Part shown: one piece after another, positions 9,535 to 9,617 of the stretch
Layout of the letters: every line of letters begins with the position of its first letter
Position numbering within the stretch: position 1 is the stretch's first letter
DNA from: Minisyncoccota bacterium
GTDB taxonomy: Bacteria; Patescibacteriota; Minisyncoccia; UBA6257; 2-01-FULL-56-20
Assembly (NCBI GenBank): GCA_025449695.1
Contig: JANWIW010000027.1
Span: 283-64,282, forward strand
Length of the DNA: 64,000 nt
Direction: 5' to 3'
The notes under the pieces: generated by a model
What the model saw: the letters and a program-made list of their open reading frames with translations, nothing else
Databases searched by the model: none
Told to the model about the DNA's origin: nothing
Position numbers and translations under genes: made by a program

Positions 9535-9617
9535 GTTCTAATCGTTATAGTCGTTCTAAGCGTTGTAACCGCACGGACCACGGCTAGAACGACTAGAACA
9601 ATTACAACGACTACAAC
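9535..9617. repeat. 9-bp-periodic GTTCTA/GTTGTA array, loop, inverted TAGAAC/TACAAC array (locus A)
   Basis: gttcta-atc-gttata-gtc-gttcta-agc-gttgta ... tagaac-gac-tagaac-aat-tacaac-gac-tacaac; between the GT2 stop and fcl start. Confidence 0.85.

Follow-up and report, generated by a model that had tools for sequence, protein, structure and literature searches.

The stretch of DNA analysed here (the window) comprises 64,000 nucleotides of a Minisyncoccota bacterium (GenBank assembly GCA_025449695.1, contig JANWIW010000027.1, positions 283 to 64,282), and four of its loci carry the same repeat element, in which an array of GTTCTA-like hexamers with a period of 9 nt is followed by an array of the inverse hexamers. 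The loci are named A, B, C and D. Based on Pfam matches, element A lies between a GT2 gene and an NAD-epimerase gene, element B between groES (Cpn10) and groEL (Cpn60), and element D between infB (IF-2) and rbfA (RbfA) on the minus strand, and at locus C the two arrays enclose a four-helix-bundle gene (23S_rRNA_IVP) that stands between lemA (LemA) and htpX (Peptidase_M48). These assignments agree with the flanking genes named in an earlier note, which was made from the sequence alone. The parts of the four elements are as follows.

9535..9567: forward arm of element A, four units (GTTCTA atc GTTATA gtc GTTCTA agc GTTGTA)
9585..9617: inverse arm of element A, four units (TAGAAC gac TAGAAC aat TACAAC gac TACAAC)
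18039..18071: forward arm of element B, four units (GTTCAA, GTTCTA, GTTCTA, GTTGTG)
18082..18123: inverse arm of element B, five units (three TAGAAC, then TACAAC and TACAAT)
23892..23924: forward arm of element C, four units (GTTGTA, GTTCTA, GTTCTA, GTTGTA)
23935..24321, plus strand: four-helix-bundle open reading frame (ORF) of 128 amino acids, PF05635 (23S_rRNA_IVP)
24337..24351: inverse arm of element C, two units (TACAAC gat TAGAAC)
49495..49518: arm of element D nearest rbfA, three units on the plus strand (GTTCAA, GTTCTA, GTTGTA)
49528..49560: arm of element D nearest infB, four units on the plus strand (TAGAAC, TTGAAC, GAGAAC, TACAAC)

The layout consists of 3-5 units of GTT[C/G/A][T/A]A, each with three free bases, a short loop, and 2-5 inverse units; two convergent arrays of head-to-tail short units share one intergenic spacer. 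The earlier note had described four loci of one family, and this is borne out by 15 matches to GTTNTA-N3-GTTNTA on both strands of the window, all at exactly these loci, against 0.01 expected from 100 dinucleotide shuffles. A relaxed three-unit scan of period 9 returned the same loci and one weak coding match, and 20 shuffles gave 0-1 matches. The elements are 44-47% GC, contain no T run, and fill the stop-to-start spacers almost entirely, the next start being overlapped (groEL) or 6-14 nt away. In element A the first unit begins 1 nt past the GT2 stop codon (TGA 9531-9533), and the ATG of the epimerase gene (9624) lies 6 nt beyond the inverse arm. The first unit of element B is also found 1 nt past a stop codon, that of groES (TAA 18035-18037), and its last unit overlaps the groEL start, TACAATG supplying the ATG at 18122. 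The forward arm of element C is located between the lemA stop and the start of the four-helix-bundle ORF, and the htpX ATG (24359) follows 7 nt beyond the inverse arm. For element D, whose flanking genes are on the minus strand, the rbfA ATG (49480) is 14 nt from the nearest arm, and the infB stop codon (TAA 49554-49556, minus strand) overlaps the outermost unit, GTTGTAA. Terminal hexamers therefore overlap codons at groEL and infB, as had been noted before, and the lemA stop can be added, being the TAG within a GTTCTAG unit (23876-23882).

The four-helix-bundle gene of locus C, to which the earlier note paid little regard, is the key to the nature of the family. Its product matches PF05635 with E = 3.5e-29, and the closest solved structure is PDB 2GSC (XCC0516, 5 chains), matched with E = 1.7e-20. 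The gene is compositionally foreign: its GC content of 0.49 and its GC at third codon positions (GC3) of 0.55, against 0.59 ± 0.04 and 0.77 ± 0.08 for the genes of the window, place it near the bottom of the 55 genes in both measures. Minimum free energy and centroid folds of 23880-24365 both pair 23895-23912 with 24333-24353, a predicted long-range stem around the ORF.

The same arrangement was found in other members of the Candidate Phyla Radiation (CPR). A forward array lies 5' and an inverse array 3' of the PF05635 gene in all eight CPR cases examined; the forward array abuts the start codon in seven of them, with junctions such as GTTCTAATG and GTTGTAATG, and is separated from it by 10 nt in the window. 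Five cases have the order lemA, four-helix-bundle gene, htpX (the window; L199-202 of Kaiserbacteria; L203-205 of Harrisonbacteria; L206; L209; numbers with an L denote related loci). In the other three, the gene stands between DsbA and TrxB genes (L207), between a hydrolase gene and an oppositely oriented HSP20 gene (L208), and between two co-oriented genes taken as pheS and pheT without an annotation test (L125). Across the CPR homologue loci of 16-20 kb, nearly all arrays present adjoin the four-helix-bundle gene. Homologues of GroEL and of the four-helix-bundle protein carry the names Paceibacterota, Kaiserbacteria, Harrisonbacteria, Colwellbacteria and Liptonbacteria, which places the window in the Patescibacteria (CPR). 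No four-helix-bundle homologue was found in phage records, and one fragment was found in viral contigs. The lemA, four-helix-bundle gene, htpX order (window 23298-25261) is kept across several Paceibacteria lineages, often beside groESL. At L125 (4195-4690), a forward array stands 5' of the gene and a complete dyad 3' of it; gatGATGAAattGTT is common to both forward arrays and looks like an insertion-associated duplication.

PF05635 genes are nested between inverted arrays in other phyla as well, as revealed by a survey of about 18 loci, which is not a census. Cyanobacterial homologues were found by tblastn against plasmids and seven were fetched, of which three were scored with a repeat finder and the rest read by eye from the flanks. 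Inverted 7-nt arrays bracket the gene in six of the seven, with arms 80-97% complementary in the three measured: (AGTAGGG)n / (CCCTACT)n in Nostoc edaphicum, with arms up to 97% complementary; (CAGGAGT)n in N. punctiforme; (AAAAGGG)n in Geminocystis, after parA and with a ParB-family gene about 500 nt downstream; (GGAGATA)n in Picosynechococcus, between cas10 and cmr3; (AGGGAAC)n in Nostoc C052; and a purine-rich, GGGGAGA-like array in Leptolyngbya. The seventh, from Pseudanabaena, has no array at its locus. One Azospirillum homologue is accompanied by (GAGGACR)n arrays, and the Gemmatirosa locus is ambiguous. In Xanthomonas campestris, accB and accC enclose the XCC0516-type gene, which has (GGGAATC)4 on one side and, on the other, an inverse array that abuts the accC ATG. 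Motif and gene are paired genome by genome, GTTNTA in the window and GGGAATC in Xanthomonas, and Nostoc has several paralogues and several heptamers. A full-text literature search found no link of this class of inverted tandem repeats to PF05635 genes. As for the surroundings, the gene of the Nostoc edaphicum plasmid (L211) lies, on the opposite strand, between nrdB and nrdA, and at the plasmid loci L216 (Picosynechococcus), L211 and L212 (Geminocystis) the array-bearing sides of the gene have spacers of about 35-90 nt.

The wider family was collected by a dyad-pattern scan of metagenome contigs, which gave 79 loci; once the window and L112 are included, the set amounts to 70 non-redundant elements, of which several may share a contig. 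An arm usually comprises 3-5 units; the repeat period is 9 nt (8 nt in L206 and L209), and 4-6 of the 9 positions are conserved. Genes were called with a self-trained codon-usage caller that reproduces the Pfam-confirmed genes of the window. Among 46 typed relatives, the flanking genes are co-directional for 39 (85%), convergent for 6 and divergent for 1, compared with 318, 62 and 64 background spacers of the same contigs (co-directional 66-72%); Fisher's test gave p = 0.057 against all spacers and p = 0.014 against those of 50-300 nt. The earlier statement that the arrays occur exclusively between same-strand cistrons thus holds for the window (4/4) and fails among the relatives, where the elements are enriched between co-directional genes and strongly avoid divergent spacers. 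Most come to within 0-25 nt of the stop and start codons on either side. Besides groESL and infB-rbfA, several elements occur inside ribosomal-protein operons, namely the alpha and spc operons (rpmJ to rpsM and rpsK to rpsD in L112; L24 to L5 and S8 to L6 in L143).

That the elements sit in co-transcribed spacers and abut stop and start codons, as previously described, is supported by their transcriptional context. No promoter-like or terminator-like site was found inside elements A-C, all 27 terminator-like sites detected in 9000-25000 lying outside them, which agrees with the former view that the arrays are not simple terminators; an intrinsic terminator was rejected because elements A-C lack a GC-rich stem with a U run. 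A near-consensus sigma-70-type promoter (TTGACA-17-TACAAT, 11/12) is present 5' of groES within 17558-17616, directly followed by the repeat TCAGCACTC-N9-GAGTGCCAA (17590-17616), which has two mismatches to the consensus of CIRCE (controlling inverted repeat of chaperone expression), the HrcA operator, TTAGCACTC-N9-GAGTGCTAA. This is the sole CIRCE-like site and it lies outside element B, so the arrays are not CIRCE, as had been proposed; judged by this site, the genome seems to keep HrcA-type heat-shock control. Since the promoter and the CIRCE-like site are 5' of groES and a terminator-like hairpin follows groEL, element B is internal to one transcript. A Shine-Dalgarno-like motif precedes only 12 of 57 window genes, and most starts follow G-poor, A/C/T-rich sequence. 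A leaderless promoter with TACAAC as its -10 box was rejected, because the distances from hexamer to ATG spread over 0-25 nt, and the resemblance of the 9-mer to a T-loop and to a PUF site was dropped as coincidence.

Gain and loss of the elements between close relatives, which had been overlooked before, is evident from comparison with four relatives (GroEL identity 80-87%). Their syntenic regions of 21 kb contain no GTTNTA arrays and no four-helix-bundle gene next to lemA. Their groES-groEL spacers measure 1, 24, 63 and 72 nt, against 84 nt in the window, and the GT2 and epimerase genes, 90 nt apart in the window, are separated by 4 nt in L220. The elements are therefore dispensable insertions at stop/start junctions. 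The distribution is patchy among close relatives, yet the motif is common to distant CPR lineages. In the closer relatives, lemA is followed by a TPM_phosphatase gene in place of the four-helix-bundle gene. An unrelated dyad of 6-7-nt units containing GAGC / GCTC occupies the 72-nt groES-groEL spacer of L219 (9929-10000; 86% GroEL identity), which suggests that this spacer has been colonised repeatedly and independently.

These data bear on the proposal that the stem is a host-evolved RNA device, arising in situ by slippage and coupling cistrons or stabilising mRNA, with no mobility and only a coincidental link to PF05635. Outermost units 0-25 nt from the stop and start would let a terminating ribosome open the lower end of the stem and so make the next start accessible, and the scarcity of Shine-Dalgarno motifs means that local unfolding should govern initiation. 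Recent slippage is indicated by several arrays with identical adjacent units (e.g., L120, L140 and L175), the L219 dyad would be an independent origin at the same site, and such a role was suggested for hairpins of short tandemly repeated repetitive (STRR) sequences between hupS and hupL (PMC2670836). However, the proposal leaves unexplained why the same hexamer occurs in distant CPR lineages and in none of the close relatives, why arrays bracket PF05635 genes in all eight CPR cases and in other phyla, and why covariation between the arms is missing (see below), and the junctions of 1-4 nt in relatives reveal that the operons work without the element. We regard this explanation as unlikely.

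The reading that best accommodates the foreign gene, its nested position and the patchy occurrence, to which we assign a probability of roughly 0.45, is that the arrays are the arms of a horizontally acquired, co-transcribed cassette family in operon spacers, similar to the intervening sequences (IVSs) of rRNA, with a stem that is a target of RNase III. The full form, exemplified by locus C, would consist of the forward hexamer array, the PF05635 four-helix-bundle gene and the inverse array, and the ORF-less form (loci A, B and D), in which the two arrays are joined via a short loop, would be a derivative of it. The cassettes would be gained and lost as units at operon stop/start junctions and co-transcribed with their neighbours, and the arms would fold in the mRNA into an AT-rich, mismatch-studded, meltable stem that sets the upstream stop codon beside the downstream start codon. 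It is proposed that, by bringing stop and start together, the stem would make the cassette tolerable where operons are tightly coupled and the genome is poor in Shine-Dalgarno motifs. On the model of rRNA IVSs, an RNase III-type enzyme likely processes this stem. When the transcribed strand was folded, as the earlier note had recommended, the window copies A, B and D beat their shuffles (z = -3.1 to -5.0).

Several observations weigh against this cassette reading. The order of lemA, four-helix-bundle gene and htpX is syntenic across several Paceibacteria, and that copy is therefore old and not recently mobile. No transposase, target-site duplication or near-identical copies were found, and no duplication was visible when filled and empty junctions were compared. 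The metagenome set had been ascertained with the dyad pattern, and its gene calls came from the author's own simple caller. The remaining points concern the stem, which is weak in many CPR copies. In 110 unit pairs from 34 oriented CPR-type elements, the arms do not covary at their variable positions: position 4 is complementary in 29% of paired units and in 35% of permuted pairs, and position 7 in 39% and 36%, respectively. Sense-strand mismatches are A.C rather than G.U (55 vs 22), the wrong bias for a sense-RNA stem, and folding is slightly more favourable for the antisense strand (32 vs 19 elements, p = 0.03). The hexamer positions G1, T2, T3 and A6 are conserved at 93-99%, and N4 and the spacers vary freely; the account of an IVS-like cassette leaves this conservation unexplained.

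The C:C and G:G clashes between the arms at position 4, recorded in the earlier note, are confirmed by the folds and the unit-pair statistics, and the orthologous copies L129, L147 and L172 retain the same mismatched unit pairs, e.g., GTTCTA opposite TACAAC. Read on their respective strands, the two arms are nearly identical in composition position by position, with the consensus GTT[CG]TA[AG][TA]C. Pairing alone cannot maintain the hexamer, because it is conserved at this level without covariation, with retained mismatches, an A.C bias and better antisense folding; judging from these alignments, some sequence-specific constraint acts on both arms. Of the two mechanisms offered in the earlier note, protein-binding sites and an RNase III-type stem, each has evidence on its side: hexamer conservation without covariation favours sequence-specific recognition of the motif, and the IVS-protein gene nested between the arms favours the stem, for which rRNA IVSs are the analogue.

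The main rival, which is compatible with the cassette reading, is that an oligomeric protein with sequence-specific affinity for nucleic acid binds the arrays as iterated sites. The PF05635 homopentamer itself would be the prime candidate, bound to 4-5 hexamers spaced 8-9 nt apart, in the manner of TRAP (trp RNA-binding attenuation protein) on its triplet repeats. At the array beside its own start, such a pentamer would autoregulate its gene, and at the ORF-less copies it would control translation or stability of groEL, htpX, rbfA, ribosomal-protein genes and further genes; the putative targets, as RNA or DNA, would be (GUUCUAAUC)4 for the window protein and (GGGAAUC)4 for XCC0516. Hexamer conservation with free N4 and spacers, and the unit pairs retained in orthologues, are in keeping with this. 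So are the 3-5 units per arm in a family whose S23p members are homopentameric (2GSC, 5 chains; PMC4990558), the flexing of the spacing between 8 and 9 nt (L206, L209), as expected of single-strand binding on a ring, the contact between forward array and four-helix-bundle start in seven of the eight CPR cases, and the pairing of one motif with its gene in each genome. On the other side, the nucleic-acid binding known around the family is that of the related Avd, and it is non-specific. A single-strand binder could not read both GUUNUA and its complement, so that one of the arms would have to serve some other purpose; an ORF that simply inserted into existing arrays would be flanked by the same motif just as well, and gene and ORF-less arrays occur together in only a handful of genomes. 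We consider this possible, at about half the weight given to the cassette reading. A broader form, which we hold to be similarly doubtful, is that PF05635 pentamers (S23p and Avd relatives) may be trans-acting partners of lineage-specific tandem repeats, each encoded within inverted arrays of its own repeat, recognising that repeat and thereby regulating or propagating ORF-less copies of it between cistrons throughout the genome. Such an autonomous / non-autonomous pair would cover cyanobacterial STRRs, Xanthomonas GGGAATC repeats and rRNA IVSs.

The consensus shared by both arms on their own strands is also what dyad DNA recognition predicts without any pairing, and the units could in principle be bound as double-stranded DNA by a repressor or a nucleoid-associated protein, in a ribbon-helix-helix-like manner on adjoining short repeats, both direct and inverted, and serve as roadblocks or chromosome-organising sites. 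However, flexing of the period between 8 and 9 bp would rotate the sites by about 35 degrees on B-DNA, divergent, promoter-bearing spacers are avoided (1/46), the type of mismatch is asymmetric with respect to the transcription strand, and no candidate regulator gene was seen beside any copy except the four-helix-bundle gene. This is very improbable, and both the double-stranded operator and the host-evolved coupling hairpin are less likely than the cassette or protein-binding readings.

The closest known systems are the IVSs of rRNA, in which terminal inverted repeats form a stem that RNase III cuts, with an S23p-family ORF in its loop (PMC4990558); rRNA insertions of CPR bacteria include 23S_rRNA_IVP ORFs (PMC11270868). 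The cassette resembles the 23S rRNA IVSs of Coxiella, Leptospira and CPR bacteria in carrying a PF05635 ORF in the loop of a stem within a transcribed, non-translated spacer, in the occurrence of short ORF-less versions (here A, B and D), and in a patchy distribution suggesting horizontal transfer (PMC4990558; PMC11270868). Unlike them, it occupies spacers between protein-coding cistrons and not helix 25 or 45 of 23S rRNA, and its arms are mismatched hexamer arrays of 9-nt period, in contrast to the near-perfect 28-bp IVS stem. By this comparison, the cassette would work like an rRNA IVS but fails the location that defines one. No rRNA was found by Rfam in the window or in 18 related loci; searches of the window at the gathering threshold, of element B in E-value mode and of the 18 loci returned only tRNAs and noise-level miRNA matches. 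A literature search with the strings TACAAC / GTTGTA yielded nothing relevant.

Among inverted tandem repeats, the GGGAATC repeats of Xanthomonas include about 70 ORF-less convergent inverted pairs per genome. Some 90% of the repeats are intergenic, with co-oriented ORFs as the usual neighbours and divergent ones rare; they were read as quadruplex-forming, and no link to a four-helix-bundle gene was drawn (Rehm et al., 2015, PMC4692102). The CPR elements share with them the convergent stem-loop arrays, the preference for co-oriented spacers and the scarcity in divergent ones, but the CPR unit is a 6-nt core with 2-3 free bases, whereas the Xanthomonas unit is 7 nt long, G-rich and nearly perfect. 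Cyanobacterial STRR hairpins, such as that between hupS and hupL, were proposed to act in transcript stability or translational coupling (PMC2670836). They likewise consist of short units in tandem that form a hairpin where two co-transcribed genes meet, and cyanobacterial PF05635 genes are bracketed by such heptamers; unlike the CPR elements, they have a 7-nt period, many motifs per genome and highly complementary arms. The perfect or near-perfect 7-nt unit that defines heptamer STRRs and GGGAATC repeats was not found in the window elements, which are filed here as a variant of inverted long simple-sequence repeats. The TAACTGA repeats of Beggiatoaceae, cyanobacteria and Bacteroidetes (MacGregor, 2015, PMC4679880) are similar in that 2-6 tandem units end a few nucleotides before start codons that lack a ribosome-binding site, and in their patchiness across phyla; they differ in being heptamers, almost always direct and not dyads, with no associated gene known.

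Repetitive extragenic palindromic (REP) sequences, with the bacterial interspersed mosaic elements (BIMEs) that contain them, and Correia elements (NEMIS, neisserial miniature insertion sequences) are also repeated imperfect palindromes in transcribed operon spacers, and Correia elements are cut by RNase III once transcribed. REP sequences, which are imperfect palindromes of 20-40 nt, lack, unlike the window elements, a 9-nt periodicity and have a GTAG head and a REP-associated tyrosine transposase (RAYT), neither of which was seen. REP/BIME was rejected, as in the earlier note, by reading the sequence, where no GTAG-headed palindrome was noticed, without a dedicated search, and no checked neighbouring ORF was of the RAYT type. 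Correia elements also lack the 9-nt periodicity, and their defined terminal inverted repeats, TA duplication and near-identical copies were not seen here. A miniature inverted-repeat transposable element (MITE) in the strict sense was rejected as well: copies share the hexamer only, spacers, loops and unit numbers differ, and there is no target-site duplication. Arrays of the TIGR (tandem interspaced guide RNA) type have units of about 36 nt with two alternating 8-12-nt repeats and 9-nt spacers, in runs of 5-15 units beside a Nop-domain tas gene (PMC12045711). The likeness is in short repeats, the number 9, and presence in CPR bacteria and phages; a TIGR array was rejected on the basis of the 9-nt unit with a 3-nt variable part, the dyad layout and the housekeeping neighbours, as opposed to long one-directional arrays.

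Other repeats were observed in the window and elsewhere. In the spacer between groEL and the next gene (19775-19854), a possible degenerate relative of uncertain membership consists of two forward 2-unit arrays, GTTGTActcGTTGGA and GTTGTAggcGTTCGA (19795..19854), placed on either side of a strong terminator-like hairpin of GC-rich sequence (19812-19837), the second of them adjoining the ATG at 19855. At 46005-46030, TAAGAACTAAGAAC forms a direct repeat of 7-nt period, related to the inverse hexamer, just 5' of the ATG at 46030. A motif-only genome scan returned mostly unrelated coding repeats and GTTCTA-type dyads in Acidobacteriota, Bacteroidales, Dialister and Sphaerochaetaceae, which may be separate families unrelated to the CPR one. 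In L027 and L068 (Paludibacteraceae) and L107 (Dialister), a conserved inner palindrome, ggtttctcgaatg...cattcgagaaacc, is enclosed by GGTTCTAAG / CTTAGAACC arrays; it is present in a genome of Bacteroidales as well as in one of Firmicutes and resembles a MITE-like family of its own. In L050, L073, L087 and L063 (Acidobacteriota, 65-69% GC), tandem GTTCTACAG units, as many as 11, precede inverse TAGAACCYG arrays. Three successive arrays, (TACAAC)n, (GTTGTA)n and (TACAAC)n, with G/C-rich spacers of 2-4 nt and no Rfam match, occur in several metagenome contigs (L136, L137, L165, L170, L178, L187, L189 and L194), some copies lying within long ORF calls.

The ORF in 23S rRNA IVSs, the heptamer STRRs of cyanobacteria and the inverted GGGAATC repeats of xanthomonads have been left unexplained for decades, and the elements described here link two old puzzles, the tandem-repeat hairpins and the intervening-sequence protein family, the window providing the CPR version with its 9-nt period. 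At the surveyed loci, the PF05635 family is habitually nested between inverted arrays in Patescibacteria, Cyanobacteriota and Pseudomonadota, and the array-nested genes are wedged in essential operons, among groESL neighbours, in accBC, in a Cas10/Cmr operon and beside parA. The arrays offer a practical marker for annotating CPR operons, and they call for caution in gene calling, since the repeats contain start and stop codons. If the link between gene and arrays is causal, the PF05635 family would gain a testable function, and a class of operon-dwelling elements would be defined that is necessarily compatible with translational coupling.

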